The translations under genes and the position numbers were made by a program. A stretch of 60,578 bases of DNA from an uncultured Candidatus Saccharibacteria bacterium (GTDB lineage Bacteria > Patescibacteriota > UBA1384 > CAYJQE01): positions 1 to 60,578 of the forward strand of contig CAYJQE010000003.1 of the NCBI GenBank assembly GCA_964372245.1, written 5' to 3'. The notes beneath the pieces are model-generated. The model worked only from the letters and a program-made list of their open reading frames with translations, was not told the DNA's origin and did not search any database. Of the stretch, positions 6,466 to 45,612 are shown in pieces (positions within the stretch are counted from its first letter, which is position 1; every line of letters begins with the position of its first letter).

Positions 6466-6792
6466 ATGATCGAGAGAAAACAAACCGAAGAGAATGGGGG
6501 AGCGAGGGATCGAGAACCGGACATAAGATCAGAGACGGCGCCTCTCTCGCCGGCTCAAGAGCCGGTCATTCGCCAGGCTCCGGAGGAGCCTTTAGATCCG
6601 AACAGACCGAATGGCCAAAATGGTCAAAATGTCCCGCCGCTTCAGCCAAAAGAAACTCCCACTAAAACCGCCGGCGCGCGCAGCCTTTTACCAAGCGAAA
6701 TTGATGAGTTGATGGCTGTTATCAAGAATTCAAACGAGAATAACTTTAGAGATCTCGATCGGAAACTTTTACGACTCCGGGAAGGTAAATAA
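6466..6792 (+). CDS. Hypothetical Pro/Glu-rich protein
   Basis: 108-aa ORF after AAGGG SD; stop overlaps the next start (TAATG). Confidence 0.6.
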   Translation: MIERKQTEENGGARDREPDIRSETAPLSPAQEPVIRQAPEEPLDPNRPNGQNGQNVPPLQPKETPTKTAGARSLLPSEIDELMAVIKNSNENNFRDLDRKLLRLREGK

Positions 6793-9284
6793 TGTTTGAA
6801 AGTCCAGTCCTTTTCCTCTTTTGGTCCTTTTTGATAGTTCTGGTTTTAGGTTCGATCGCTCTTGCCGGTTATCTTTTTTATATTAAAAAGCTCTCGCTCA
6901 AAGAGGCGATTAAGCGTTCAGTCGAGCTCGAGTTTTTGCTGGTGACTTTGCCGAGAGCTTCGGGCGAAGAGCAACTGCCGCCCTTCGCCGAGATGGTGGC
7001 GACGATGGAGCCGGTCGTTTCAACGATTGATTCTTTTTACAAAAAGGGCTTCTGGCCTAAAACTCTCGGCCAGAAAGAGCTGATCTTTGAGATCGCGACC
7101 CGCCAGAACGAAGTCTTTTTTTATGTCGGTCTGCCAAGAAGTTTGAGCGGCCTGTTTGAGCGTCAGATCCAAGCCCATTATCCCGAGTCGGAGATAGAGC
7201 CGGTTTTAGATTACTCAATTTTGCCGTCCGAGGGCGAGATCTTTTATTCAGCGGCCGAGCTGAAACTCTCAAAATCCTTTGTTTTCCCGATCAGAACTTA
7301 TAAATCGCTTGAATCCGACCCGCTCTCCGGCATCGTCGAGGCTCTGGCCAAAGTCGGCAACCGGGGAACGGCGGTGTTTCAGGTGGTCGTCCGACCGCTT
7401 GACCAGAGCTGGCGACAATCGGTTGAAGAGGCGGCGAAAAAAATTCAGGAAGACGGAAAACTCGACGAGCCAAAAGCCTTCTTAAAAGCGGCGACTCGAG
7501 GCGCCGCCGGTCTGGCTCGCGACGTTGTCAAAGGGGCGGTTTCCAGCGGCAAAGGCGCTGGCGATCAGCCGAAAACCGAGTCCTCGCGGCTCAACCCGCT
7601 CCAGGAGTCTCAACTCAAACTCCTTGAAGAAAAATCGGCCAAAATTGGTTCTGAGGCCAACTTTCGAGTGGTGACAACGGCGACCAGTCAAACCGAAGCC
7701 GAGATCGAATTGAACAACATCTTAGCCGCCTTCGCGCCGTTTCAACTTTCGGGCGGCAACGGGTTTTCAGTCGTTAAAAAAGACCAAAAAGCGATTATGA
7801 CCGACTACATTACCCGCCGATTTGAACCAAAGTCTCGCATGATCTTAAACATCGAGGAACTGGTTTCGGTCGTTCATTTTCCGACAAAATATATGACAAC
7901 CGCCGCCATTCGCTCGGTCCGGGCGAGATCTCTGCCGCCGCCAACCAACTTACCGGAAGAGGGGACGCTCCTTGGTATCAGCCTCTTCCAAAATCGGGAG
8001 CGATCGGTCAAACTCATGGCCGAAGATCGGCTGCGACATCTCTACATGATCGGCAAGACTGGCGTCGGGAAGACCGTCCTTTTCGAGAACATGATCTTGC
8101 AGGATGTGAAAGAGGGGAGAGGGGTCTGTTATATTGATCCGAACGGCGACGCGATTGAATTTCTGCTCGATCGGATCCCGAGCGATCGGCTGGGCGACGT
8201 CATTCTTTTTAACCCGTCCGACATTGAGCGGCCCTTTGGCCTCAATCTCCTCGAATACAGAGCCGACGAGGAACGAGACTTTTTGGTCCAAGAGGCGATC
8301 CAAATTTTCTACAAGCTCTTTGATCCCGGCCAAACCGGCATAATCGGACCGCAATTTGAGCACTGGTTTAGAAACGCCGCCCTAACGGTCATGAGTTTGC
8401 CAGAAGGCGGCTCGTTGATTGATATCCCGCGGCTCTTTATAGACAAAGACTTTGAACAGCAAGCGATCTTGCACATCAAGGATCCCGAGGTCAGAGCCTT
8501 CTGGGAAAAGCAGATGGCCCAGACAAGCGAGTATCACAAATCGGAGATGCTCAATTATTTCACCTCAAAGTTTGGTCGGTTTTTGACCAACGATATGATG
8601 CGAAATATCATTGGTCAAAGACAATCCTCATTTGACTTCAGAGCCGTTATGGACGAGCAAAAAATCCTCTTGATCAATCTCTCGAAAGGCTTGATCGGCG
8701 AGATCAACGCTCAACTTCTGGGCATGATCATCAACAGCAAACTGGCGATGGCCGCCTTTTCAAGACAGGATGTCGAAGAATCGGCGCGGCTTCCGTTTTA
8801 TCTCTACGTTGACGAGTTTCAGAACTTTGTTTCCGATGTTTTCGCGACCGTCCTTTCAGAGGCCAGAAAATATCGTCTTTCGCTCAACATTACGAACCAA
8901 TATATCGCCCAATTGCCCGAGGCGATCAGGGACGCGGTGATCGGCAATGCCGGGACGATGATCGCTTTCCGGATTGGAGCTTCAGACGCGGAGTTTCTGC
9001 AAAATGAGTTCCAACCGCTGACCGTTAACGATCTGGTTTCGATCGAGAAGTTTCAATTCTATTGCAAGCTTCTGATTAACAATACGCCTCAAAAACCGTT
9101 CAACGTTCGGGGTCTGCCGCCTTCTTCCGGAATTAACTCCGAGTTGAAACAGAGAATACTGGAGTTTTCAAGGATACAATACGGACGCGCGCGAAAAGAG
9201 GTTGACGAGGAGATTCGCGAACGGGCAAAGCTCGGTTCGTTAGCCGCCCCCGGTGTGGCAGAAGGGCCGATCAACCGAACTTGA
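6792..9284 (+). CDS. Membrane-anchored VirB4/VirD4(TraG)-like HerA-FtsK superfamily ATPase, paralog 1
   Basis: N-terminal TM helix; Walker A GKTGVGKT; IDPNGD; Walker B LYVDEFQNF; SEARKYRL...NQYIAQL. Confidence 0.88.
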   Translation: MFESPVLFLFWSFLIVLVLGSIALAGYLFYIKKLSLKEAIKRSVELEFLLVTLPRASGEEQLPPFAEMVATMEPVVSTIDSFYKKGFWPKTLGQKELIFEIATRQNEVFFYVGLPRSLSGLFERQIQAHYPESEIEPVLDYSILPSEGEIFYSAAELKLSKSFVFPIRTYKSLESDPLSGIVEALAKVGNRGTAVFQVVVRPLDQSWRQSVEEAAKKIQEDGKLDEPKAFLKAATRGAAGLARDVVKGAVSSGKGAGDQPKTESSRLNPLQESQLKLLEEKSAKIGSEANFRVVTTATSQTEAEIELNNILAAFAPFQLSGGNGFSVVKKDQKAIMTDYITRRFEPKSRMILNIEELVSVVHFPTKYMTTAAIRSVRARSLPPPTNLPEEGTLLGISLFQNRERSVKLMAEDRLRHLYMIGKTGVGKTVLFENMILQDVKEGRGVCYIDPNGDAIEFLLDRIPSDRLGDVILFNPSDIERPFGLNLLEYRADEERDFLVQEAIQIFYKLFDPGQTGIIGPQFEHWFRNAALTVMSLPEGGSLIDIPRLFIDKDFEQQAILHIKDPEVRAFWEKQMAQTSEYHKSEMLNYFTSKFGRFLTNDMMRNIIGQRQSSFDFRAVMDEQKILLINLSKGLIGEINAQLLGMIINSKLAMAAFSRQDVEESARLPFYLYVDEFQNFVSDVFATVLSEARKYRLSLNITNQYIAQLPEAIRDAVIGNAGTMIAFRIGASDAEFLQNEFQPLTVNDLVSIEKFQFYCKLLINNTPQKPFNVRGLPPSSGINSELKQRILEFSRIQYGRARKEVDEEIRERAKLGSLAAPGVAEGPINRT

Positions 9285-9346
9285 CAGAAAATCAATTATC
9301 GGCTATATTCGGCAAAACGGTGTTTAAATAAATAAAATAAAAAAAT

Positions 9347-9898
9347 ATGACGGACAAGGAACAGGCTCTAACCCAAAATGAAAACCAGAAGACTGGGGAA
9401 ACGATCGATCTGGCTCAAATCGGACAGCTCATAGATGTCGCTCAACGGCGGCTGCTTGAGGCGAAGCAGTTGATTCAGAGATACACTATCTCGGATCTTT
9501 TACCCAAGGAGAGCGCTCAATCCGAACGGATCATCGAGGGCATTTTCGACGGTCAGGCCATGATCTCAAAAAACGGCGATCTTTATCCGGTGCCACAAAA
9601 TTACGCTTCGAAATCAAAGCTGGTCGAAGGCGACCTCTTGAAGATGACAATTGCCGACAGCGGTCAGATTTTCTTCAAACAGATCGGGCCAATCGAGCGG
9701 CAGTCGGCCATTGGCCATGTTATAGAGGACGATGGTCGCTATCTGGTTATGGTTCGAGGCCGGGCCTATAACATCCTTAAAGCGTCGGTGACCTTTTGGC
9801 AGGTCGAGCCCGGAGACAAGCTGGCCGTTTTAATTCCGGCCGGCTCGTATCAGGCGACTTTCGCCGCCGTTGACTACAAAGTAGAAAGCGCGGACTAG
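9347..9898 (+). CDS. Conserved hypothetical protein (N-terminal helix plus two small beta domains)
   Basis: IIEGIFDGQAM...YPVPQNYASKSKLVEGDLLK...KQIGPIER pattern recalled from CPR proteins; stop overlaps the next GTG start. Confidence 0.75.
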   Translation: MTDKEQALTQNENQKTGETIDLAQIGQLIDVAQRRLLEAKQLIQRYTISDLLPKESAQSERIIEGIFDGQAMISKNGDLYPVPQNYASKSKLVEGDLLKMTIADSGQIFFKQIGPIERQSAIGHVIEDDGRYLVMVRGRAYNILKASVTFWQVEPGDKLAVLIPAGSYQATFAAVDYKVESAD

Positions 9899-12800
9899 TG
9901 GATCTCTTGAGCCTGCTGGTTGGCCTCATCGTAATTTTAGCGCTCGCTTTTGCGGTCACAATCAGCCTGTCTTTTTATAAAAAGGGGAGACTTATTCAGG
10001 CTCGAGCCAATTTCCTCAATTCGTTGAAAATGATTACCCTAGCGGTCTCGGTGCCTCGGGAAAATGAGAAAACGCCCCAAGCGGCCGAGCAGATGTTCTC
10101 CGCCCTCCACGGCATCCTCCGACAAGATCCGATTCAACAGGAGCACTTCAGTTTTGAACTCGTGGCCGAAGAGAGCTCAATCAAATTTTTTATCAATTTA
10201 CCGGTTCATCTCAAAGATTTCATCACCGGCCAGATCTACGCCCACTATCCGACGGTTGATATCAGCGAGCTGGAAAACGACTACACCGACGACTTGCCAG
10301 ATATCGGTTTTGCTCACGCCTCCTCAAACCTGGCGCTCGAAAAACCGGACGCTTATCCAATCCGAACCTTCGAAAGTTTTGAGGTTGACACTCAAGCCGG
10401 CATCACAGCCGTCCTCTCGCAAACTGGTCAGGGCGAGCGGGTCTGGCTTCAATATCTCCTTCGGCCGGTTGACGAGACTTGGGAGAAAAAAGCCGAGCTC
10501 GAAATTCTAAAACTCAAGGGCGAGTTTAAGGATACAAGGTTGACTTTGGCTGGCGCGCTGAAAGGATTTACGGCCTTTCTTTCCGACATCGCGACTGGCT
10601 TTTTTTCCGCCGGTCGAAATGGCGAGAGATCGGAGAATGGCGGGGGAGGAGATCCCTTGGCGAAGCTCTCCGGGCCGGCAAAGTTGGCAATCGCCGGAAT
10701 AGAGGAAAAGATGACGAAGCTCGCTTTCGCGACTATCGTCCGGTCGATCTCGATCGCCAACGACGAGACTTCGGCCAGAGCGCGGCTCGAGGCCCTGATC
10801 GGCGCCTTCAAGCAGTTCAATCTGACCAACCTGAACGGCTTTAAGGCCGAAAAAATTTCAATCGGCGACTCGTCGGCGATCGAGGCTTATAGAAAGCGAT
10901 CTTTTCCAAGCGGAGCCGGCAATATTTTCACCACTTCCGAACTCGCTTCGCTTTACCATTACCCGGCGACCTCGGTCGAGACGCCCAATATCGTCTGGAC
11001 CGGCGCCAAAAAAGGCGAGCCGCCATCGAATTTGCCGGTTGAGGGAACAGTTTCAACCGAGGCGCTGACGGTTTTCGCCAAGACCGATTTTCGTGCTCGA
11101 AAAGAGCGATTCGGCATCAGCCTTGACGACCGCCGACGACATATGTATCTAATCGGCAAAACCGGCGTTGGCAAGTCGGTCCTGATTTCAAATATGGCTT
11201 TATCCGACATTTATGCCGGTCATGGCTGCTGCGTCGTTGATCCTCACGGCGACCTGATCGAGACGATTCTCCAGGCCATTCCCTCTCATCGGATCAACGA
11301 TGTCATTCTTTTCGATCCTTCGGACCGAGACTTTCCAATCGGTTTCAATCTTTTGGAACAGGTTGATGAAGATCTCAAGGGCATTGTCGCTTCTGGCTTC
11401 GTCGGCATTTTCAAGAAAATTTTTGGTTTTTCTTGGGGCCCAAGACTTGAGCATATCCTTAGGAACACCGTTTTGGCGCTGCTTGACAACGAAAACCAGA
11501 CCATGCTTGGCATTCCAAAGATGCTAACCGACAAACGATATCGTCAGGAGATCGTTTCGAATGTCAGGGACCCGGTCATCAGAGATTTTTGGGTTAACGA
11601 GTTTGAGCAGTACGATACCAAATTTCGGACCGAGGCCGTTTCGCCGATCTTGAACAAAGTCGGCCAATTTCTCTCAACGACAACGATCAGGAATATCGTC
11701 GGTCAGGTTAAGAGCACGGTTGATATGAGAGAAGTTATGGATAATCGAAAAATTCTTTTGATCAATCTAACCCGCGGTCGAATTGGCGAGGACAACTCGG
11801 CGCTTTTGGGTTCGATGCTGGTCACTAAAATTCAGCTTTCGGCTATGAGCCGGGCCGATATACCCGAAGACCAAAGAGTTGACTTCTTTCTTTACGTTGA
11901 CGAGTTCCAAAACTTTGCCACCGAATCTTTTGCCGTCATCCTCTCCGAAGCCCGGAAATATCGTCTCAATCTGGTAATCGCTCATCAATACATCGCTCAA
12001 CTGCCGGAAGAGGTGAGAGACTCGGCCTTTGGCAATGTTGGGACAATCATCGCCTTTCGAGTCGGCGCGGCCGACGCCGCCTTTATGGTCAAGGAGTTTG
12101 AGCCGGTTTTTACCGAAAACGATTTGGTTAATCTCGAAAAATACCACATTTACATCAAGTTAATGATTAACGGGGTCGCCTCGCCGGCCTTCTCGGCAAT
12201 TACCTTGCCGCCGACCGAGATGACGACTGATAGTCGCGAGAAGATCGTTGTCTTAGCTCACGCCGCCTATGCCAAACCAAGAACAAGCGTCGAAAGGGAG
12301 ATAATTGATTGGTCGAGGCGATTGGAACCGGAGCTCTCGCCGACCGACAAAGCGGTCGAGGAGCTGATGGCCTCAAGGCATCAATCAAAGACAAACTCAA
12401 GCGGCCAGTCGTCTTTCGAAGCGGCTCGCCTTAACGAAAAAGAGGGTGAAAAGAGCTCGGAAGAAAGATTCAATCCGGCCGATCTGATCAAGGCACAATC
12501 TGAGAACGAGCCGACGATCGGCAAGGCGATGATCAACGATGTGATCTATCGGGAAGTCAGCCAAAAGGGCGGACTCCTCTGGTATGTCGGCGAGGTGGGA
12601 GACGACAAGGCAATCGCCAGTTTTCAAGGGATAAAGCTCGGCTTGATTCCAAAAGAACGTCGGACCGAAATTGAAAAAATAAAGGCTGCGAGCGAGAACA
12701 AGCAAGCTGAACGATTGCGGAGCCGAGCCGAGCAGGAGGTGATCAAAGAGCAAACCGAAAGAAAGGACGACGATCAACCGCCAACCGGATCGAGCGGGAC

Positions 12801-12996
12801 TGGCGGCAATCAAGATCAAACCATCAATCGAGAGCTAATTCAAAAGCGCTTGAATCGGCAAGGTTCATCCAAACCGCCAGATATTGGGACGAGCGGGGGA
12901 GAGGCCGACTCTGGCCAAGAGGACAAAAGAGAAAACGAGAGAGAAGGCAAGGTCGTCATTCTCAAGCCGAACGAGGTCGTTAGCTTGAGAAAATAG
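9898..12996 (+). CDS. Membrane-anchored VirB4/VirD4(TraG)-like HerA-FtsK superfamily ATPase, paralog 2, with long charged C-terminal tail
   Basis: N-terminal TM helix; Walker A GKTGVGKS; VDPHGD; Walker B LYVDEFQNF; clearly paralogous to 6792-9284. Confidence 0.88.
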   Translation: MDLLSLLVGLIVILALAFAVTISLSFYKKGRLIQARANFLNSLKMITLAVSVPRENEKTPQAAEQMFSALHGILRQDPIQQEHFSFELVAEESSIKFFINLPVHLKDFITGQIYAHYPTVDISELENDYTDDLPDIGFAHASSNLALEKPDAYPIRTFESFEVDTQAGITAVLSQTGQGERVWLQYLLRPVDETWEKKAELEILKLKGEFKDTRLTLAGALKGFTAFLSDIATGFFSAGRNGERSENGGGGDPLAKLSGPAKLAIAGIEEKMTKLAFATIVRSISIANDETSARARLEALIGAFKQFNLTNLNGFKAEKISIGDSSAIEAYRKRSFPSGAGNIFTTSELASLYHYPATSVETPNIVWTGAKKGEPPSNLPVEGTVSTEALTVFAKTDFRARKERFGISLDDRRRHMYLIGKTGVGKSVLISNMALSDIYAGHGCCVVDPHGDLIETILQAIPSHRINDVILFDPSDRDFPIGFNLLEQVDEDLKGIVASGFVGIFKKIFGFSWGPRLEHILRNTVLALLDNENQTMLGIPKMLTDKRYRQEIVSNVRDPVIRDFWVNEFEQYDTKFRTEAVSPILNKVGQFLSTTTIRNIVGQVKSTVDMREVMDNRKILLINLTRGRIGEDNSALLGSMLVTKIQLSAMSRADIPEDQRVDFFLYVDEFQNFATESFAVILSEARKYRLNLVIAHQYIAQLPEEVRDSAFGNVGTIIAFRVGAADAAFMVKEFEPVFTENDLVNLEKYHIYIKLMINGVASPAFSAITLPPTEMTTDSREKIVVLAHAAYAKPRTSVEREIIDWSRRLEPELSPTDKAVEELMASRHQSKTNSSGQSSFEAARLNEKEGEKSSEERFNPADLIKAQSENEPTIGKAMINDVIYREVSQKGGLLWYVGEVGDDKAIASFQGIKLGLIPKERRTEIEKIKAASENKQAERLRSRAEQEVIKEQTERKDDDQPPTGSSGTGGNQDQTINRELIQKRLNRQGSSKPPDIGTSGGEADSGQEDKRENEREGKVVILKPNEVVSLRK

Positions 12997-15708: not shown

Positions 15709-16509
15709 TTACGACTCCTGATTCGAGTGGCCGGCATTCAAACTCTTGATGACCCTTTCGAGATCAAAAGGCAAAGCCGATTTGAAAGTCAGCCTCTCCC
15801 CCGTCGCCGGATGGTCAAACGAGAGCCTCGAAGCGTGCAGGAACTGTCGCCCGAGTTTAAGCCCGCGGCTTAACTCTCGACTTAATTTTGTCTTGTAGAT
15901 CGGATCGCCCATGATCGGGTGAAGAATCGCTTTGAAATGAACTCTCAACTGATGCGTCCGGCCGGTGATCGGCTGACATCGAACCAGAGTCAGGGTTGTC
16001 GATTTGCCGCCTTTTGCCATTGCCTGAAAGGTCTTTTTGACGCTATAGAGGCTTTTGCTCGGACGGCCAGCAAACTTTTCGGAGAGTCGAAAATAGCCGG
16101 TTTTCCGGCTTCGCTCGATTCCACCCTCGATCGCCCCTTGGGGCTTCTCGGGTCGGCCACAGAGAAGCGCGGTGTAGATTTTCTCAAACCGACCTTCTTT
16201 CAGTTCGGCCGAGAGTTTTTTTAGCGCCCCCTTGGTTCTGGCGACGACCATCAGTCCCGAAGTCATTCTGTCGAGCCGATGAACGATCCCCGGCCGAAGC
16301 CGGCTTTTTTCGCTCAAGTCTAAAGTCGCCTCCCCTATCGTCGGCCATTTTTCAATCAGCCAATCGGTCAAATATCGCTCGTCCGTCAGTTTTGGCTTCG
16401 CCGTTTTTTCAATCTTGTTTCGGTGAACGATCCAGCCAGCCGGCTTCTCAAGAACCAGAAAAGATCGGTCTTGATAGATCAGCCGTGGCCGCCGGTCACG
16501 ATCTTTCAT
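15709..16509 (-). CDS. RluA-family pseudouridine synthase
   Basis: KPAGWIVH, HRLDRMTSGL (catalytic Asp), TGRTHQLRVH, GDPIY, LHASRLSFDHP. Confidence 0.95.
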   Translation of the reverse strand: MKDRDRRPRLIYQDRSFLVLEKPAGWIVHRNKIEKTAKPKLTDERYLTDWLIEKWPTIGEATLDLSEKSRLRPGIVHRLDRMTSGLMVVARTKGALKKLSAELKEGRFEKIYTALLCGRPEKPQGAIEGGIERSRKTGYFRLSEKFAGRPSKSLYSVKKTFQAMAKGGKSTTLTLVRCQPITGRTHQLRVHFKAILHPIMGDPIYKTKLSRELSRGLKLGRQFLHASRLSFDHPATGERLTFKSALPFDLERVIKSLNAGHSNQES

Positions 16510-16876
16510 TGCTCAATGACAAGACAGAGAGGCCCGGACCTTCGAGTTAAGCTCGAGGATCTCGTTGGCTCTCGCTTGGCGATCAGGGTTTATTATTTTT
16601 AGCATCCAAGCCTTAAGGACTTTTTCTGTAAGTTCTAACCGACGATGAAATGTTATTCCGATTCTCGTCATCTCGATTGTGCAGGCCGCTAAGGAAGGAG
16701 GGGCTAAAACCTTAACGACTCTGCACAACCAAAACGACCAGAGATCGAAATGGCTTTCAGTCGCTTGGATTGTAGCCGAGTTTCGACCGGCTGTCAACAG
16801 TTATTAAAGAAACTTTGACGATCAAGTTTACCGTTTTTTAAATCTCAAAAAGAATCAACGATGGTTGTCGAAAGTG

Positions 16877-16903
16877 AAAAGGGGCGAGCACATAGCTCGC
16901 CCC
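16877..16903 (-). terminator. Intrinsic terminator of the candidate ncRNA, copy 1
   Basis: Minus strand GGGGCGAGC-TATGT-GCTCGCCCC-TTTTCACTTT. Confidence 0.75.
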
Positions 16904-17123
16904 CGGGGCTGACGGGTCAGCGGTCGGCTTTTAGCGCAAGCCGGGCCGCCTTCCCCCCGCCCCTCCCGTCGGCGTCGAGGGCCGAGTGGCGTCTATCCAG
17001 CCACTCTTAGCGCTAATTACCTCTCTTCGCCGCCAGGTAGGTGGATGGGTTTGGGGCGTTTTTTTAAGTTCCCCGCCCGTCCACTTACCTGTCGACGAAA
17101 AAAACCTTGTTTTCAATTCTCAG
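16877..17123 (-). ncRNA. Candidate ~250-nt structured non-coding RNA of unknown family, copy 1
   Basis: Bounded by a near-consensus promoter and an intrinsic terminator; contains a ~74-nt long hairpin, three shorter hairpins and a possible 7-bp pseudoknot; no SD-led ORF. Confidence 0.6.
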
Positions 17124-17129
17124 AGCCCT

Positions 17130-17158
17130 ATTGTAGCATATATTAAAAGGTTTGTCAA
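17130..17158 (-). promoter_or_regulatory. Sigma70 promoter TTGACA-17-TACAAT with extended -10 (TG), copy 1
   Basis: -35 at 17158-17153, -10 at 17135-17130. Confidence 0.85.
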
Positions 17159-17338
17159 GAGCCAGTGACACTTATCAAGATCGAGTATGGCCTTTGGCCC
17201 TAATCAAATGAAATTCGCTTCCGTTTTCTGGCAAAATCCGGATTCCTTTTCAACCGCCAATCGATAGCGATTTTTGGCTCCCTCTCGGCTTAAATGCCAG
17301 ACTTGCTGACATTAACCTTTCCGCGGTTGTCGAAAGTG

Positions 17339-17365
17339 AAAAGGGGCGAGCACATAGCTCGCCCC
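17339..17365 (-). terminator. Intrinsic terminator of the candidate ncRNA, copy 2
   Basis: Identical to 16877-16903. Confidence 0.72.
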
Positions 17366-17585
17366 CGGGGCTGACGGGTCAGCGGTCGGCTTTTAGCGCA
17401 AGCCGGGCCGCCTTCCCCCCGCCCCTCCCGTCGGCGTCGAGGGCCGAGTGGCGTCTATCCAGCCACTCTTAGCGCTAATTACCTCTCTTCGCCGCCAGGT
17501 AGGTGGATGGGTTTGGGGCGTTTTTTTAAGTTCCCCGCCCGTCCACTTACCTGTCGACGAAAAAAACCTTGTTTTCAATTCTCAG
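17339..17585 (-). ncRNA. Candidate ~250-nt structured non-coding RNA, copy 2
   Basis: Identical to copy 1, offset +462. Confidence 0.55.
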
Positions 17586-17591
17586 AGCCCT

Positions 17592-17620
17592 ATTGTAGCA
17601 TATATTAAAAGGTTTGTCAA
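17592..17620 (-). promoter_or_regulatory. Sigma70 promoter TTGACA-17-TACAAT, copy 2
   Basis: Identical to 17130-17158. Confidence 0.8.
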
Positions 17621-18088
17621 GAGCCAGTGACACTTATCAAGATCGAGTATGGCCTTTGGCCCTAATCAAATGAAATTCGCTTCCGTTTTCTGGCAAAATC
17701 CGGATTCCTTTTCAACCGCCAATCGATAGCGATTTTTGGCTCCCTCTCGGCTTAAATGCCAGACTTGCTGACATTAACCTTTCCGCTTGAACCGCCCGGT
17801 TGCTCGATGACCTTACACAGCCCGGCCGATCGTTCTTTTTCAACCGGCCTTTTTTGCCCTGGGTCTCTTTTAGTGAGGCCAGAAACCGCGATCGAGATCA
17901 CGAACTCTGGTCTTTGGCCCACCCACAACAGGTGGGCCAAAAAAAATATGATTGCGGGTGCTTTTTTAACGCAGGGCACCACACTGCGGCCGGTTTCTGT
18001 TTTCAGGGTTCAAGCGGGGCTTCACGCCCGCCCGGCTCCCCAGCCCCGCCCGCGTTTTTTCGCGGCGGGGAAGAAGTGTGGCGTTCCC

Positions 18089-18472
18089 CTAGCCCCCCCT
18101 CTCGGCCAGATAGGCCTCGAGGGCCGCCCGCGCCCGCGCCCCTGCCCCTTCGGTTGAACGATTAGGGCGGTGTGCGGCGCGCGGCGTCAGCCGCTTGGCT
18201 CGCCGCCTTTCGGCGGCCGGCCTCAGCCTTTCGGCCTCGGCCTCGGCCTGCCTGACAGCCAAACGTTGACTGTTCAGGACAGGCTCTAGAGCGCGCAGCT
18301 GCCGGCAGGCCTCAGCCGAGCCAGCCGGGTCAACCCCGGCCAGCCGGCGAGCCCGAGCCTCTAACGCTTCATGCTTAGCACGAAGCGTCTTTAGCTCGGC
18401 AACCTGACTGGACTGTTTGGCCTGCGCGTCGCCGAACGCCAGCTCCTCTTGGGAGAGGAGCATTTTCTTCAT
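18089..18472 (-). CDS. Orphan GC-rich, Ala/Arg-rich coiled-coil protein
   Basis: 127-aa ORF preceded by a strong AGGAGGTG SD; heptad-like helical content. Confidence 0.6.
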   Translation of the reverse strand: MKKMLLSQEELAFGDAQAKQSSQVAELKTLRAKHEALEARARRLAGVDPAGSAEACRQLRALEPVLNSQRLAVRQAEAEAERLRPAAERRRAKRLTPRAAHRPNRSTEGAGARARAALEAYLAERGG

Positions 18473-18547
18473 CCTTTTTCACCTCCTCTTGGCGCTCGTC
18501 CTCTCCTTGGTCGAATTTCGACCGTCGGGGGATTAATGCGCGAGTGG

Positions 18548-18584
18548 AAAAAGGCGAAAGAGCTTTTTTAGGAGCTCTTTCGTC
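18548..18584 (-). terminator. Terminator-like hairpin in the leader of the 127-aa ORF
   Basis: Minus strand GACGAAAGAGCT-CCTAAAAA-AGCTCTTTCGCC-TTTTT, ~75 nt upstream of the ATG. Confidence 0.5.
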
Positions 18585-18646
18585 TGCTTCCAGAGAGTTT
18601 AAATCGGACTTTAAATTTCAATTAGAGCGGCGCGACCTCGATGCCC

Positions 18647-18676
18647 TTGACAACTTTTAAGATTTTTTACTAAACT
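18647..18676 (+). promoter_or_regulatory. Sigma70 promoter TTGACA-18-TAAACT
   Basis: Upstream of AAGAGGAG SD and ATG 18707. Confidence 0.7.
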
Positions 18677-18706
18677 TCAGTGAGTAGCATTAAGAGGAGA
18701 AAAAAA

Positions 18707-18904
18707 ATGGACGATGACACGAATTCAATGATTGACGACAGCGGTGATGAGGAAGAAACCGAGGAAGAAACCGAGGACGAAACGACCGGCGCCGCCACAA
18801 GCGGTGGATCGGGCGATGACGATGGAGACGAAGAAGGCGGAGCCGGCGGAGACGACGAAAAAGAAGATCAAGGCGGCGATCCCGCCCCGCCTAGCTGGCA
18901 ATAA
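18707..18904 (+). CDS. 65-aa extremely acidic, low-complexity peptide
   Basis: Has its own promoter, AAGAGGAG SD and a downstream hairpin; 15 Asp + 12 Glu and a single Lys in 65 aa. Confidence 0.72.
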   Translation: MDDDTNSMIDDSGDEEETEEETEDETTGAATSGGSGDDDGDEEGGAGGDDEKEDQGGDPAPPSWQ

Positions 18905-18910
18905 TCGTCG

Positions 18911-18954
18911 GATCGAAGAGAAGGTCGGGTTTTCACCCGGCCTTCTCTTCGATC
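18911..18954. terminator. 19-bp stem-loop, probable terminator (possibly bidirectional; no classic U-tract)
   Basis: GATCGAAGAGAAGGTCGGG-TTTTCA-CCCGGCCTTCTCTTCGATC, 6 nt after the stop. Confidence 0.65.
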
Positions 18955-19199
18955 GGAATTCACCGAATTTGCCAGTCGCGGGCTTTTGCCTACTAGTTAA
19001 AGGGAAAAGCGCGAAACTGGCAGATTGGGTGAATCATTCCGAGATCGAACTTTCGGTTGATCAGACGCAGGCGCGCCTCTCGGAAGAGACCTGTTGGCGA
19101 CTGACTTTTGGGCTCAAACTTCAATCAGACTTTGCTCAAGGTTGGTCGCTTTAAGCACAGTGACTTGGCTTCGTTACGGCTTGGCGGTTTCCCGGCCAA

Positions 19200-19384
19200 A
19201 CTATAAGGAAAGCGGGGTCGGTCGCCGAACAAGGCCCGACTTTAAGGTCAGGCGGCTTGGTTTTTCGGAACCTAGCATAGGCTAAACAGCCCTCCCCGAT
19301 TGATAAGGGGCCTGATTTGGCCGCTTTGCCTCCTTTTTCGAGATCGGCCTATTGGCCCCTCTCAACCCGCTCCTTATTTTCAAC
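19200..19384 (-). ncRNA. ssrS: 6S RNA-like rod (candidate)
   Basis: Closing stem ATAAGGA-GCGGG / CCCGC-TT-TCCTTAT spans 175 nt; second helix AATAGGCCGAT / GTCGGGCCTTGTT; internal bubble; apical stems; strong promoter directly upstream. Confidence 0.55.
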
Positions 19385-19390
19385 GACGCC

Positions 19391-19419
19391 ATGATAACAT
19401 AAAATGGCCGGATTGTCAA
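19391..19419 (-). promoter_or_regulatory. Sigma70 promoter TTGACA-17-TATCAT with extended -10
   Basis: -35 at 19419-19414, -10 at 19396-19391; no ORF follows. Confidence 0.82.
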
Positions 19420-19590
19420 GTCCTGGAAAGGCAAATCATGACTTGATCAAGAGAGATTCCCGGAAAAATGGCTCTTTTCTCGACCCGTAAGCTCTTAAAG
19501 CCCGAGGATTTTCCGAACTCCGATTTTAAAAAAAACCGACTCGACCTCGGAATCGAAACATCGGTGGGTTTTGAGATTAATTGATCTAAA

Positions 19591-21204
19591 ATGAATCAGA
19601 TGGCAGAAAATAAAACTTATCACGATCTCGAACCAAATGGGCAAGTTCAAGCTGGCCTAAAGGTTCACGAGGTGGTGGACCGGCTGTTGGGCCAAGATCT
19701 TAAGGCCAAGCTTAAAACCTTTGAGCTTGTTGTCTCTTTGGCCAAAGCGGTCAAGGAGCGATCGGGCCGGCTGCTTCTGGTTGGCGGTTCGGTTCGAGAC
19801 GAGGCGATGGGAAAAACTCCCAAAGATTTCGATGTCGAAATTTATCGGTTGCCGCTCGAGGCGCTTAAGGAGCTAGCTTCGAAGTTCGGCAAAGTAAAAA
19901 TGGTCGGCGAAGCTTTTTTGGTTCTAAAACTAACGACCAAAGAGGGCATTGATCTCGACATCTCCCTGCCAAGAAAAGATTCGAGGACCGGCCGAGGCCA
20001 TAAAGGCTTTTTGGTTGAGGAACATCCGGAAATGACGATCAGAGAGGCGGCGAAGCGGCGAGACTTCACAATGAACAGTTTGGCCAAAGACCCCTTAACC
20101 GGGGAGATTTTTGATTTCTTCGGCGGCCTTAACGATATCGCCCGCCGAGTTCTTCGAGTGACCGATCGTGAGAGATTTCCGGACGATCCGCTTCGAGCTT
20201 TGCGGGCAATCCAGTTCTGCGGCCGATTCGAGATGGGAATTGATGACGATTCGAAAGAGATTATCAGGACTCTCAATCAGGAGCTGAAAGATTTGCCGCC
20301 AGAAAGAATTGGTGAGGAATGGCGGAAGCTTTTGCTCAAAAGCCGACGACCGTCCTTTGGTCTTTCCGCTGGATTGGAGCTTGGGATTTTTGATCAACTC
20401 CATCCCGAACTCTCGGCTCTGAAAAAGACCCAACAGGAAAAAAGGTGGCACCCGGAAGGCGATGTTTTTATTCACACTCTGATGGTAGTTGACGAAGCGG
20501 CGAAAATTGCCAGAAAGGAGAATCTTTCATCCGATCAAAGACTCAAGCTCTTGCTTTCAGCCCTTTGCCACGATCTTGGAAAACCGGCGACAACCAAAGT
20601 TGAGGCCGGTCTGATTCGGTCGCCTGGCCACGAGCCAGCTGGCGGACCGTTGGCCGAACAGTTTTGCCGCAGCCTCGCGATTGACAACAAGACGACAGCG
20701 ACAGTCGTCAAGCTGGTCGAAAACCATCTCGCGCCAGCCCTTTTTTATCAACAATCGTCATCGGGTCAAGAAATTTCCGACGGCGCTTTTCGCCGACTGG
20801 CAAAAAAGATCGAACCGGCCAATTTTTATCTTTTGAATCTTTTGGCTTTCGCCGACCACCGCGGACGAGGTCCTTTCACCGATCCAAAAAAACCCGGTCA
20901 GTTTCTGATGCCCGATGATTTTCCGGCCGGAATTTGGTTTATGGCTCGAGTTTTGGGCCTCGGCTTGGAAAAAAAATCGGCCGAGAGTTTGATCAGAGGC
21001 AAAGATTTAATTGCCCTTGGCCTGAAGCCGGATAAAAAGTTCGGTGAAATTATCAGGCTGGCCGATGACCTAAGGGACAACATAAACTTGAGCCGCGAGG
21101 CGGTCCTGGAGATGATCGCAAAGGCTGGAACCAGCGAGCGGGCGACCGCTCTTCTTCAAGAAAAACTCGCTGGCGCGGGTTTCGGCGATGACCAATCAAG
21201 TTGA
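19591..21204 (+). CDS. cca: CCA tRNA nucleotidyltransferase with HD domain
   Basis: VGGSVRD, DFDVE, RRDFTMN, DDPLRALR, WHPEGDVFIHT...CHDLGK. Confidence 0.92.
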   Translation: MNQMAENKTYHDLEPNGQVQAGLKVHEVVDRLLGQDLKAKLKTFELVVSLAKAVKERSGRLLLVGGSVRDEAMGKTPKDFDVEIYRLPLEALKELASKFGKVKMVGEAFLVLKLTTKEGIDLDISLPRKDSRTGRGHKGFLVEEHPEMTIREAAKRRDFTMNSLAKDPLTGEIFDFFGGLNDIARRVLRVTDRERFPDDPLRALRAIQFCGRFEMGIDDDSKEIIRTLNQELKDLPPERIGEEWRKLLLKSRRPSFGLSAGLELGIFDQLHPELSALKKTQQEKRWHPEGDVFIHTLMVVDEAAKIARKENLSSDQRLKLLLSALCHDLGKPATTKVEAGLIRSPGHEPAGGPLAEQFCRSLAIDNKTTATVVKLVENHLAPALFYQQSSSGQEISDGAFRRLAKKIEPANFYLLNLLAFADHRGRGPFTDPKKPGQFLMPDDFPAGIWFMARVLGLGLEKKSAESLIRGKDLIALGLKPDKKFGEIIRLADDLRDNINLSREAVLEMIAKAGTSERATALLQEKLAGAGFGDDQSS

Positions 21205-21222
21205 AGTCTTTAAAAAACCCAA

Positions 21223-21619
21223 TTAGCCGATATTGGTTTGGCGACGACGATTCTGGTCGGAAGAATCGTCCTTTTCTTCCCGACGCTTCCTTGATCTAAT
21301 CACCGGCTTTTGAGTTCTTTTCGTCTCGGGCTGATTTAAATCCGACCGATTGGTATTGAGAATCCGCCTCAAAAGGCTTTGGCCGATAGGCTTTGCCTCT
21401 CCTTCCACTTGGCCATCCGGCCTAAACCAAAGTGATAATATTTGTTCGCCCAGGGCGGTTTTGACTTCGATCAGCTCGCTTTGTCATTCCCGGGTGATCG
21501 CGCAAAAAGGCGAAAAGCGCGGCCGAACCTCGCAAAATCAGCCGAGCACTTGGCGATCGTTTTAATTCGGGCGAGGGCGGTTGATCGGGCCGATAGGGGA
21601 CCTCGGGATTGTTGAGCAT
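21223..21619 (-). pseudogene. Possible frameshifted orphan gene (~131 aa if base 21484 is removed)
   Basis: TGnTATATT -10 lies 7 nt before ATG 21619; frame 1 runs to GM at 21487 and the +1 frame continues QSELIEVK... to the stop at 21223. Confidence 0.35.
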
Positions 21620-21688
21620 CGAACTTAATATATCACTTCTTAAGTCAGATCTCTGCGGCTTCACAGTCAGCCAAAAGCTGAAAACCTC

Positions 21689-21770
21689 AAAGAGAAAGGG
21701 GCGGTCGAAGAAACAAACGACCGCCCCCGCAGCACCGCCCATCTCTCAAGAGCGATGAATCTTACAGACC
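21689..21770 (-). ncRNA. Candidate ~80-nt small RNA
   Basis: TTGACA-16-TTTAAT promoter (21805-21778), two small hairpins, then a 10-bp GGGGCGGTCG/CGACCGCCCC terminator with TTTCTCTTT. Confidence 0.4.
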
Positions 21771-21850
21771 CAGAATCATTAAAGACGATTCCAGCTGATT
21801 GTCAAGCCCCACCCACTTCACGGGAGACTCACGGCGCAAAAAGCGAGGTT

Positions 21851-42755: not shown

Positions 42756-43418
42756 TTATAGTCCCGACAGACGAGTGTGAGCCACCAGACAGAGCGGCCG
42801 GTCGGAGACTCTTGCCTCTTCCAAAGCGGTCGCCAGTTCGTTATAGTCATGTCCGTCAATATCCCTCGCCCGCCAGCCAAAGGCCTCGAACCTCTTTGAG
42901 ATCGGCTTGGGCGCCTCGGAGTAGTCGGCAACAACAATTTTGCAGATATTGTTCAAATTTCTTTCAGCCGCCCGATAAACCGCCTGCCAGAGCCGTCCGG
43001 AATCCTGATGACCGGAATCACCGATAACATAAACCACTTTCCGTCTCGATCCAATGATCCGTTGAGCCAATTTAACGGCTCTCGAAAGGCCGGAAGCCCT
43101 CGGACCATGATGACTTTCAAATCGATCCTCGATCGCCCGATGATGATGAATCGAGGCGTGACTAACATGAACGGCCCTTAAGAGGGAAAAGGCGGCCTCG
43201 AATATCGGCCGACACTCTTGACAGGCGACTATCAAGCGATCTCGTTCCGGCCAGTAGGGATTTTTCGGGTCAAAGAGATAGTGATTGCCGAAAATCAAAG
43301 CAGAAAAAAGATCGGCCGATTGAAGATGGGTCTTCTTCTGGCCTGTCGGGGAATCTCGGTCGGACCCCAAGACCCGGACCTTGATCGCCTCCGACTGTTT
43401 TTTGAGCCTCTGACTCAT
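42756..43418 (-). CDS. Degenerate transketolase N-terminal (TPP-binding) paralog
   Basis: Aligns with 44755-45612 (FDPKNPYWPERDRL, WQA, FEAFGW...IDGH) but lacks the SAGH/SCGH/GHP histidines and the canonical GDG...N motif. Confidence 0.7.
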   Translation of the reverse strand: MSQRLKKQSEAIKVRVLGSDRDSPTGQKKTHLQSADLFSALIFGNHYLFDPKNPYWPERDRLIVACQECRPIFEAAFSLLRAVHVSHASIHHHRAIEDRFESHHGPRASGLSRAVKLAQRIIGSRRKVVYVIGDSGHQDSGRLWQAVYRAAERNLNNICKIVVADYSEAPKPISKRFEAFGWRARDIDGHDYNELATALEEARVSDRPLCLVAHTRLSGL

Positions 43419-43459
43419 CACTCCCCCGCCTTTGCCACTGAATTTAGTCTAGCAGAGTT

Positions 43460-44491
43460 TCAGTTTTCACTGACTTTGATTTTGATCGACTGACTCTGAC
43501 GACGTTTAACCGCTCTCAAAGCCGCTTTAACGATATCTTCGGTCGTCATATTAAATTTTTTTAGGAGTTCGTCCGGTTGACCGGATTCGCCAAATTGATC
43601 ATCCATCCCAACCGGCTCAATCGGAGTTGGCTGAAACTCGGCCAAAACTTCGGAAACCGCTCCGAAAAGGCCGCCAAAACATTGATGTTCCTCAACCGTA
43701 ACCAGCGCGCCAGTTCTCTTGGCCAGCTCGCTAATGGCTTTCCGGTCAATTGGTTTGAGCGTGTGGCAATTGAGCACAATCGAACCAACTCCGGCCTCTT
43801 TTTCGAGTTCCCTCGCCGCTTCGAGGGCTCGATAGAGAAGCGGGCCGATACCGATAATTCCGACTTTCGGCTTTTCCGACCGCCAATAGATCTCGGCCGA
43901 ACCGATTCTGAAAGGAGTCTTTTGACTGGTAAAAAGAGGAGACGCCTCCCTCGCGAATCGAAAGTAGACCGGTCCTTGATGTTTGGCGGCAGCCAGAGTC
44001 GCCTTTTTAGTCTCAAGAGCGTCACAGGGAGCGATGACCGTCATATTCGGCAAAACCCGCATTATCGAGAGATCCTCGAGAGCTTGATGAGTCGCCCCGT
44101 CTGGTCCGACCGAAACACCAGTGTGGGCGCCGGCGATTTTGACATTGGCTTTTGAATAAGCGATCGCTACCCGAATCTGTTCCCAAGCTCGACCGGGTGA
44201 AAAAACGGCGTAAGAGGAGATGAAAGGAATCTTTCCCGCCAGAGCCAAGCCAGCCGCCACTCCGGTCATATTTTGCTCGGCCACCCCGCACTCGATAAAT
44301 CGATCGGGGTATTTTTCCTCGAAAAGTTGGGCTCGGGTTGATTCCTTGAGATCGCCGGTCAAAACAACGATGTCGGGATTTTCCCGACCAAGCTCAAGCA
44401 GACCCTGTCCGTAACCATCGCGAGTCGGGACCGCTTTGATCTTTTCCGAAAAGAGATCGCTCACCAAATTTGCTGCCGAAACGATTGCCAT
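43460..44491 (-). CDS. Transketolase, C-terminal subunit
   Basis: TRDGYG, GVAEQNM, GPDGATHQALED, VTVEEH, FGESG. Confidence 0.93.
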   Translation of the reverse strand: MAIVSAANLVSDLFSEKIKAVPTRDGYGQGLLELGRENPDIVVLTGDLKESTRAQLFEEKYPDRFIECGVAEQNMTGVAAGLALAGKIPFISSYAVFSPGRAWEQIRVAIAYSKANVKIAGAHTGVSVGPDGATHQALEDLSIMRVLPNMTVIAPCDALETKKATLAAAKHQGPVYFRFAREASPLFTSQKTPFRIGSAEIYWRSEKPKVGIIGIGPLLYRALEAARELEKEAGVGSIVLNCHTLKPIDRKAISELAKRTGALVTVEEHQCFGGLFGAVSEVLAEFQPTPIEPVGMDDQFGESGQPDELLKKFNMTTEDIVKAALRAVKRRQSQSIKIKVSEN

Positions 44492-44754
44492 GTCAGGTCA
44501 TAAATGCCAAATTATCGGTCAGAACGGGGCGGCTCGGGTTGGCTGTTTCGGCCCTTGAGCGCCAAGTGATAGGCCAAAGGCAAAACAAGACCAAGGCTCC
44601 TCGTCGAAGCAAAGAAAAAGGCCTTCTAGCTTTTGCCAATCTGGGCTTTTTCGATAAAAAGCCAGTTTGCCGACCGGCTCCTGTTTTCATGATCTTGGCT
44701 GGCAGTTTCATGACCGGGCCTTCATTGTCTTTCTTTGACACTCCCGATTCCGTA

Positions 44755-45612
44755 TTAATCAAGCTCGCTCTGAACCCGACCCTCAAGGGTTCGAAGTTCT
44801 TTGAGAGCCTTTTGGGCTTCCACGGCTGTCGGCGGCTTGCCATGCCACCGGAAGTCCCGCTCCATAAATGGCACTCCTTTACCGGGAATGGTATGGCAGA
44901 TAATGGCGACCGGTTTCTCGTAAACCGCTTGAGCTTCGTGGCAGCCGTCAATGATCTCCTCAATGTTGTGACCGTCAATCTCTAAAACGTGCCAACCAAA
45001 GGCCTGATATTTTTCGTCAAGCGGCTCGAGCGGCATAATGTCCTCGGTAAAACCGTCAATCTGGATGTTGTTCCGGTCAATCAAAACCGTTAAGTTGTTC
45101 AGACGATATTTCGCCGCCATCAGGATAGCCTCCCAAGTTTGGCCTTCGTCGTGCTCGCCATCGGAAAGAATGGCATAAACCCGCCAAGGGGCCTGATCGA
45201 GCTTGGCGGCTAAAGCCATGCCGATCGCTTGGGACAAGCCTTGACCGAGCGGGCCAGACGAGTTCTCGACTCCCGGGGTGACAAGATTGTGAGGATGGCC
45301 GTGAAGCCGACCGCCGAACTTTCTCAAAGTCGTCAGAAATTCGGCGACCGGAAAATAGCCGGCGTGAGCCAAGGTGGCATAAAAAACCGGATTGATGTGA
45401 CCGCAGGAGAGCACCAGACGATCACGCTCGGGCTTATCGGGCCGTTTTGGATCGTAGTCCAGGATCCCTCCAAAATAGAGAGCGGTAAAAACATCGGCCA
45501 TGCCAAGGGGACCGGCGCTATGACCAGAGCCGGCTTTGACAAGGGCCCTAATAATATCTTGGCGAATCGCGTTGGCGATCTTTTTAAGATCTTGCAGATT
45601 TCTAGTTTTCAT
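44755..45612 (-). CDS. Transketolase, N-terminal subunit
   Basis: GSGHSAG, DRLVLSCGH, LHGHP, GPLGQG, SDGEHDEGQTWEA, DRNNIQIDG. Confidence 0.95.
   Translation of the reverse strand: MKTRNLQDLKKIANAIRQDIIRALVKAGSGHSAGPLGMADVFTALYFGGILDYDPKRPDKPERDRLVLSCGHINPVFYATLAHAGYFPVAEFLTTLRKFGGRLHGHPHNLVTPGVENSSGPLGQGLSQAIGMALAAKLDQAPWRVYAILSDGEHDEGQTWEAILMAAKYRLNNLTVLIDRNNIQIDGFTEDIMPLEPLDEKYQAFGWHVLEIDGHNIEEIIDGCHEAQAVYEKPVAIICHTIPGKGVPFMERDFRWHGKPPTAVEAQKALKELRTLEGRVQSELD

Follow-up and report, generated by a model that had tools for sequence, protein, structure and literature searches.

A tandemly duplicated candidate small RNA gene of no known family on a contig from the Candidate Phyla Radiation

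Bacteria of the Candidate Phyla Radiation (CPR, or Patescibacteria) possess tiny genomes, are mostly uncultured and are probably symbiotic. The contig CAYJQE010000003.1, whose 60,578 nucleotides (nt) were all analysed and are called the window here, comes from such an organism. A GC-rich segment of about 250 nt in the window, at 16872..17123 on the minus strand, raises the question of whether it is a gene for a structured RNA and, if so, of which kind. The original prediction had proposed a new structured non-coding RNA at this place. Our analysis favours a free-standing gene for a structured, trans-acting small RNA (sRNA) that is highly expressed and was recently duplicated; the probability of this reading is put at about 0.55. 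The candidate is known from in silico prediction in one genome, on this 60.6-kb contig, and an orphan trans-acting sRNA gene is plausible, though unproven.

The first question is whether the segment forms a transcription unit. The promoter described in the original prediction, TTGACA with a 17-nt spacer and a TG-extended TACAAT (TGcTACAAT), is present at 17158..17130 on the minus strand and matches the consensus at 11 of 12 positions. With its extended –10 element, this near-consensus promoter is of the sigma-70 type, to judge from its motifs. The start of the predicted RNA was placed 7 nt downstream of the –10 hexamer and its 3′ end was set in the U-tract, which gives a transcript of about 250 nt. 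An intrinsic terminator lies at 16870..16904 on the same strand, with its stem at 16904..16880. It consists of a GC-rich stem, GGGGGCGAGC-UAUGU-GCUCGCCCCU, followed by UUUUCACUUUC, and its mean pairing probability (P) is 0.97. The terminator and its U-tract had been recognised before; the stem, however, has 10 base pairs (bp) and not 9. The GC content of the RNA region is 60% against 51% for the contig. An own promoter and an intrinsic terminator frame a non-coding segment, which is the anatomy of a free-standing sRNA gene. Since both signals operate in the minus orientation alone, the RNA strand is taken to be the minus strand.

The promoter is not isolated. Eight promoter-like sites were found in the 3.3 kb around the element, where 1.3 ± 1.2 were expected. 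On both strands of the whole contig, just seven sites match the consensus at 11 or more of the 12 positions. Four of them are on the minus strand within 16769-19419, and the other three sit just upstream of listed open reading frame (ORF) starts (3834, 9281, and 33654). Because these three sites outside the region precede listed ORF starts, the motif looks meaningful in this genome.

The second question is whether the transcript is structured. The 254-nt sequence from about 17123 to 16870 on the minus strand was folded, and a free energy of –128.1 kcal/mol was obtained (z = –6.5). None of the 200 dinucleotide shuffles folded as well, and the background of the contig, in sliding windows of 250 nt on the minus strand, had a mean z of –0.98 with a standard deviation of 1.37. 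The partition function supports four successive hairpin domains, H1 to H4, and the terminator, with P of at least 0.9 in every helix. H1 (17019-17106) is a long imperfect hairpin of 31 bp, of which five are G-U pairs (mean P 0.96); its 14-nt loop, AACUUAAAAAAACG, is rich in A and predicted to be accessible. The long hairpin of about 74 nt noticed earlier at 17026-17099 is its core. A linker follows at 17007..17016, which by its predicted accessibility would be single-stranded and which carries a 10-nt palindrome, UUAGCGCUAA. H2 (16984-17006) corresponds to the GAGUGGC/GCCACUC stem of the original prediction and has the loop UGGAUAGAC (mean P 0.96). H3 (16965-16981) is a short hairpin of 6 bp, CCCUCG/CGACGGG (mean P 0.91); the CCCUC arm seen before does start this helix, but its partner is CGACGGG and not GAGGG. 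H4 (16905-16963) has 21 bp in three segments, each with a mean P of 0.97-1.00. The GCGG..CGGCUU/AAGCCG..CCGC stem proposed earlier was recovered in it at P of 0.97 or more, as GGCGG..CGGCUU/AAGCCG..CCGCU, and is extended further by GGGGCGG/CAGCCCC. Its apical loop is the 7-nt GCGCUAA (16931-16937), which is predicted to be accessible. A separate GCUGAC/GUCAGC hairpin, also proposed earlier, has P of about 0 and is not favoured because its bases are taken by the base of H4. All of these domains are on the minus strand. Between the 5′ and 3′ ends of the RNA, pairing covers only 5 bp (UGAAA/UUUCA, P 0.68).

Just five short stretches are predicted to be exposed, about 45 of the 254 nt in all: the linker AAUUAGCGCUAA, the terminator loop, and the loops of H1, H2 and H4, the last being GCGCUAA. 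The heptamer GCGCUAA is carried by two of them, the linker palindrome and the H4 loop. The linker sequence UUAGCGC (17010-17016) is perfectly complementary to the entire 7-nt H4 loop, and a 7-bp complement between unpaired segments was equalled or exceeded in 142 of 5000 shuffles (p ~0.03). In the modelled fold, the complementarity hints at a loop-linker pseudoknot, at a site for dimerisation or at a protein-binding site that is repeated, without proving any of the three.

The third question is whether the transcript is coding. Codon log-odds were trained on 23 genes of the contig. Each of the six frames of the RNA region scored below zero (–0.10 to –0.37), in contrast to 0.12-0.36 for real genes of the contig. 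On direct reading, there is no Shine-Dalgarno sequence before any start codon in the transcript. The earlier description of a GC-rich transcript without a Shine-Dalgarno-led ORF is thus supported.

Neither the tandem duplication nor the wider structured region had been part of the original prediction. The RNA gene lies in a perfect tandem duplication that extends over 16863..17786. The unit is 462 bp long, with copy 1 at 16863-17324 and copy 2 at 17325-17786. A repeat search and TRF gave 2.0 copies with 100% identity and no indels, and blastn confirmed it. Each copy comprises promoter, RNA and terminator together with about 160 bp of spacer upstream. In copy 2, the promoter is at 17592..17620, the predicted RNA at 17334..17585 and the terminator stem at 17366..17342, all on the minus strand and identical to those of copy 1. 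A covariance model gives 151.6 bits on both copies alike. By blastn, the repeat junctions were free of microhomology, and the unit occurs nowhere else in the contig. The flanks are matched identically by two independent Logan contigs of run ERR4904390: L001, which ends at 16892, and L093, which starts at 17757. Both break points are 30 nt inside the repeat edge, as a graph with k = 31 breaks at a repeat. Therefore, the junction of unit end and unit start (...CCTTTCCGC joined to GGTTGTCG...) exists in the reads. The unit is hence present in two or more tandem copies or, as a less simple explanation, in a circular form.

The next question is whether the RNA is a known one. Rfam 15, with 4227 models including tmRNA, RNase P, signal recognition particle (SRP) RNA, 6S, riboswitches, T-box and ribozymes, gave no match at the gathering score across the whole window. 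At E values up to 10, searched with 3.3 kb and with 311 nt, just plant microRNA hairpins and terminator-bearing sRNAs appeared, and these look-alikes scored 14-25 bits against thresholds of 39-111. ARAGORN found no tRNA or tmRNA in the window. The original prediction had stated that the segment could not be matched to tmRNA, RNase P, SRP or a common riboswitch, and Rfam 15 and ARAGORN together gave no credible match either. The cmscan search against Rfam that it had proposed as a check returned no significant match to a known family. Two more identities suggested by motifs were tried and rejected. A CsrB/RsmZ-type sponge for CsrA was rejected because one loop alone carries a GGA (H2, UGGAUAGAC) and the five GGA in total are about what chance gives. 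A hammerhead-like CUGAGA...GAAA at the 5′ end has no intervening helix II and no Rfam match.

The RNA cannot be assigned to any known family, and its gene is of the ordinary bacterial sRNA kind. Tandemly duplicated trans-acting sRNAs with Rho-independent terminators exist, for example PrrF1/PrrF2 and the Qrr genes. The candidate resembles these sRNAs in its own sigma-70-type promoter, its length of a few hundred nt, its non-coding nature, its several hairpins, its intrinsic terminator and its tandem duplication. In contrast to them, it is without family assignment, conservation, and an identifiable seed or target. It is also far more paired than typical seed-pairing sRNAs, and its host is a CPR bacterium. 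Stability, GC enrichment, several helices and a possible tertiary contact are shared with the Rfam RNAs of unknown function, raiA, OLE and ROOL/GOLLD. However, it matches none of their models, and its length and helix layout are unrelated. Those classes were defined by covariation across many genomes, whereas the candidate comes from a single one. A strong promoter and terminator, a stable structured RNA and a small genome recall 6S RNA, SRP RNA, RNase P RNA and tmRNA. Unlike those of 6S or SRP RNA, the ends of the candidate form no long closing rod. Unlike 6S, it consists of four successive hairpins rather than a single rod with a large central bubble, and no 6S match was found at E up to 10. 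The P4 or CR motifs of RNase P and the GGAA-loop motif of SRP were not seen by eye. Finally, its size and its long hairpin, from which a DNA copy could in principle be made, are reminiscent of a retron msr-msd, but the scanned ORFs of the window contain no RVT domain and there are no a1/a2 flanking repeats.

Relatives of the RNA were searched for widely. Phage and plasmid sequences gave no BLASTN match to the 462-bp unit. A structure-aware pattern (linker, N6, H2 loop, N6; exact or with IUPAC codes) was absent from the metagenome contigs of the Joint Genome Institute (JGI) and from viral contigs, and three more 18-19-mers had no match in the viral collection. Against 1.3 Mb of fetched loci, the sole match of blastn and nhmmer was the organism's own Logan contig. 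The covariance model of the 118-nt core (R1) found the two window copies alone in 297 kb that included 17 CPR loci, and none of the CPR loci obtained by synteny look-ups of RluA and FtsZ homologues contains the RNA. Nothing relevant was found in the literature on non-coding RNAs or sRNAs of CPR/Patescibacteria, or on the sample accession.

The organism itself is isolated. The contig is an ordinary bacterial chromosome segment. Its genes include tgt, two TrwB-like ATPases, secDF, rluA, cca, rmuC, an addA-like helicase-nuclease and nrdR, as well as ftsZ/ftsA, lexA, dinB, pentose-phosphate genes, hisS, clpB, nusA, mreB and murA. The closest FtsZ relatives, at 73-75% identity, are from Patescibacteria and Candidatus Berkelbacteria, which agrees with the earlier guess of a CPR genome; by this protein comparison, the host is a CPR bacterium of an isolated, Berkelbacteria-like lineage. 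Among 5.8 billion proteins, none matches RluA at more than 41%. In genome contigs, RluA has relatives only at 40% identity or less, mostly in Actinomycetota, and no close relatives of the Cca protein were found in metagenome contigs. No collection searched contains a close relative of the organism. Because the organism has none in the databases, the missing homologues are uninformative rather than negative.

Several points nevertheless weigh against a functional trans-acting sRNA. No homologue was found in the collections searched, hence neither covariation nor selection on the structure is in evidence. Homologues with covariation were the support that the original prediction had asked for, and the BLAST, nhmmer and covariance searches, the 17 CPR loci included, supplied none. 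No convincing trans target was found within the 60-kb contig. In the duplex scan, six RNA segments (the five predicted to be exposed and a G-rich tract) were run against the rest of the contig, and the best z of –4 to –5.8 among about 12,000 windows is not clearly past the extreme-value expectation in a scan that covers about 60 kb of the genome. The plus strand folds nearly as well (z = –7.0). The 3-kb surroundings are rich in hairpins, so the strong structure could reflect foreign or decaying DNA rather than this transcript. A perfect duplication can be neutral.

If the sRNA reading is right, the RNA would be made at a high level and would act in trans as a stable, compact structured RNA. 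The linker UUAGCGC may pair over 7 bp with the H4 loop, which would give a loop-linker pseudoknot. Alternatively, the palindrome UUAGCGCUAA may mediate an RNA dimer or serve as a site for a dimeric protein. A role in protein binding or as a scaffold is favoured over that of a classic seed-pairing regulator because nearly the whole RNA is paired and the heptamer that it exposes is repeated and self-complementary. The recent duplication would double the gene dosage.

Among the other explanations, the one that survives best, although we consider it unlikely, is relic or passenger DNA. It holds that the hairpin-rich, GC-elevated 3-kb region, the 462-bp unit included, is a foreign or mobile remnant, or a rearrangement scar at a synteny break, whose promoters and hairpins have no current cellular function or one at the DNA level alone. 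The gene order of the relatives is ftsA-ftsZ-nrdR-...-addA-rmuC-(deacetylase)-rluA-...-secD-secF. In the relatives L084, L085 and L097, rmuC is followed directly by the deacetylase gene and/or rluA, with no gap, whereas the window holds about 5.3 kb extra at the rmuC-rluA junction (16510-21850), which is a lineage-specific synteny break. The break comprises an inverted cca gene on the plus strand (19591-21204) and a mostly non-coding 3-kb region with minus-strand units (16510-19590). Twelve of the 13 most structured windows of the contig, in minus-strand folds of 250 nt, fall in 16501-19125. The ORFs of the region are unique to the organism or of low complexity, and the lack of homologues of the RNA also fits a relic. 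On the other hand, four near-consensus promoters, each with a structured segment on the same strand, are unexpected in decaying DNA, and the structured part coincides exactly with the stretch between a matched promoter and terminator. The Pfam scan, which covered the 50 ORFs of at least 120 aa in the window, found no reverse transcriptase, integrase, transposase, Rep or Cas domain, and PHROGs and PADLOC gave nothing for the ORFs of the 3-kb region. The unit is without obvious terminal inverted repeats, and the lack of phage or plasmid matches and of another copy in the contig speaks in the same direction. More specific mobile identities, namely an insertion sequence, a miniature inverted-repeat transposable element or an integron cassette, were rejected, as there were no core sites, terminal repeats, recombinase or transposase domains, or dispersed copies in the contig.

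A cis-acting leader is improbable. On this explanation, the RNA would act as a riboswitch or attenuator, its terminator would govern read-through into the rluA-secD-secF operon that follows, and the duplication would amount to a tandem switch. The RNA, the terminator and rluA-secDF do follow in that order on the minus strand, the compact fold with its possible pseudoknot resembles an aptamer, and the 3′ arm of the terminator, CGCCCCU, could be an alternative partner for AGGGGCG in the lowest part of H4. However, the terminator is about 370 nt from the rluA start codon, and a separate unit intervenes. This rluA leader unit (16510-16797, minus strand) has a near-consensus promoter of its own at 16797..16769, followed by a structured leader of about 250 nt with a hairpin of about 45 bp (z = –6.6). 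Riboswitch and T-box models gave no match at E values as high as 10, and direct reading revealed no convincing mutually exclusive antiterminator. Moreover, copy 2 leads into copy 1 and not into a gene.

It is very improbable that function resides in the plus strand or in a copy made of single-stranded DNA or complementary DNA, in the manner of a retron. The original prediction had left room for such an antisense or copied species, on the counts of G-T wobbles. In its favour, the fold of the plus strand is as good as that of the RNA by z, and both strands also fold as DNA (–60.5 and –64.0 kcal/mol). As RNA, the best folds have 85 pairs and –128.1 kcal/mol on the minus strand versus 81 pairs and –123.7 kcal/mol on the plus strand. 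They hold nine G-U pairs each, and since these counts are equal, the wobble argument cannot decide the strand. The consensus scan of the plus strand found no strong promoter, just two 9-of-12 sites inside the element, and no terminator was found on it, where hairpins lead into A-runs. A reverse transcriptase had been suggested as something to search for; the Pfam-scanned ORFs of the window, those of at least 120 aa, contain neither an RVT nor a Rep domain. The ends, with their 5 bp, form no retron-like a1/a2 repeats. With the transcription signals on the minus strand, no reverse transcriptase domain in the scanned ORFs and equal wobbles, the suggestion of an antisense or copied species finds no support. 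Finally, a small protein is scarcely credible, since the two ORFs that exist mechanically, one of 61 aa on the minus strand (16931-17116) and one of 60 aa on the plus strand (16986-17168), have codon log-odds of –0.23 and –0.10 against the 0.12-0.36 of real genes, start with TTG and GTG without a Shine-Dalgarno sequence, and both cross the long hairpin.

The surroundings of the duplicated gene contain further candidates. A second candidate non-coding RNA of about 470 nt is located at 18915-19419 on the minus strand, with a near-consensus promoter at 19419..19391 (TTGACA, 17 nt, TG-extended TATCAT) and a z of –7.5. It ends in a 23-bp inverted repeat (18908-18957) and has no convincing ORF; a 27-aa ORF with a Shine-Dalgarno sequence near its 5′ end has a negative coding score. 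No Rfam match was obtained, and RNase P and tmRNA were rejected as identities for it in view of absent motifs and matches. In the rluA leader unit, the hairpin loop UUUUAGCCCCUCCUU resembles the 16S anti-Shine-Dalgarno sequence and is complementary over 8 nt to GGAGGGGC in the 250-nt RNA. A mechanical 94-aa ORF in this unit has no coding signal. Two further ORFs of the region were noted. The first, of 127 aa at 18089-18472 on the minus strand, is rich in Ala and Arg, has a coiled-coil look, a good Shine-Dalgarno sequence and gene-like codon usage, and no homologue among the 5.8 billion proteins; its region ranks with the contig's most structured windows of 250 nt (z = –7.1). The second, of 65 aa at 18707-18904 on the plus strand, is very acidic, with D/E runs and the end PPSWQ, and has a promoter-like site at 18647 and a strong Shine-Dalgarno sequence. 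It was called as a gene on the Logan contig, and Pfam, PHROGs and PADLOC gave no match for it. A DNA-mimic-like protein is conceivable, as is a mere low-complexity sequence.

The same junction was inspected in other CPR lineages. In L087 (JGI 3300029268), a candidate RNA at 8606-9135 lies between rmuC and deacetylase-rluA, on the plus strand like the flanking genes. It has a TG-extended consensus promoter, comprises about 490 nt of unannotated non-coding sequence (z = –9.1) and ends in a long hairpin and U8. L087 and a Logan contig, L088, are identical in this RNA region, so they provide no variants. In L082 (GCA_040961635.1), a candidate of about 430 nt, likewise unannotated and non-coding, is at 9190-9658 on the minus strand, in divergent orientation to rluA and within the 857-bp gap that precedes this gene. 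Its promoter is TTGACA, 18 nt and TG-extended TATACT, and its terminator is at 9218..9195. Neither candidate has an Rfam match. By Smith-Waterman alignment and shared k-mers, these two candidates and the other structured transcripts of the window showed no significant similarity to the 250-nt RNA, and the two candidates showed none to the other RNAs of the window or to one another. The presence of candidate RNAs at the rmuC-rluA junction in other lineages may be a coincidence, or the junction may repeatedly host fast-evolving RNA genes.

Some other features of the window are recorded here. Its RluA is without the N-terminal S4 domain present in some relatives. Beside secDF, there are two adjacent TrwB/VirD4-like ATPases of 830 and 1032 aa (6792-12996). 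Since the pair (DUF8128 and TrwB_AAD_bind) is syntenic in the CPR relatives L082 and L083, it is a conserved chromosomal feature and not a plasmid sign. The transketolase is seemingly split into N- and C-terminal ORFs at 44755-45612 and 43460-44491, with a short Transketolase_N-like fragment at 42756-43421 (whole span 42756-45612). In CPR relatives, a gap of about 1 kb separates the thioredoxin gene from addA (L098, 12135-13081; L097, 12071-13026; L084, 12138-13296). It contains short, non-conserved ORF calls alone and could be another non-coding locus. The window is without this segment, and nrdR abuts addA.

A bolder version of the sRNA reading was also considered, and we hold it to be speculative and rather unlikely. 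The RNA would then represent a new class of compact, pseudoknotted, probably protein-binding RNA that is specific to a deep Berkelbacteria-like CPR lineage. It would belong to a 3-kb 'RNA island' of at least four strongly promoted structured transcripts, namely the RNA of about 470 nt, the two copies of this RNA and the 250-nt rluA leader, which replaced a compact gene junction. One member would have been amplified by tandem duplication, and the site may be a recurrent home for fast-evolving regulatory RNAs, as the L087 and L082 candidates might suggest.

The duplication, the surrounding cluster of promoters with structured segments, and the CPR host lift the RNA above a routine sRNA prediction. 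Even if the region were relic DNA, it would still mark a synteny breakpoint and an assembly-breaking repeat. The regulatory RNA biology of CPR/Patescibacteria appears to be little explored, and a duplicated promoter-RNA-terminator unit inside a cluster of similar units would provide a concrete, testable entry point. If the sRNA reading is true, reduced CPR genomes would be investing in lineage-specific structured RNAs.

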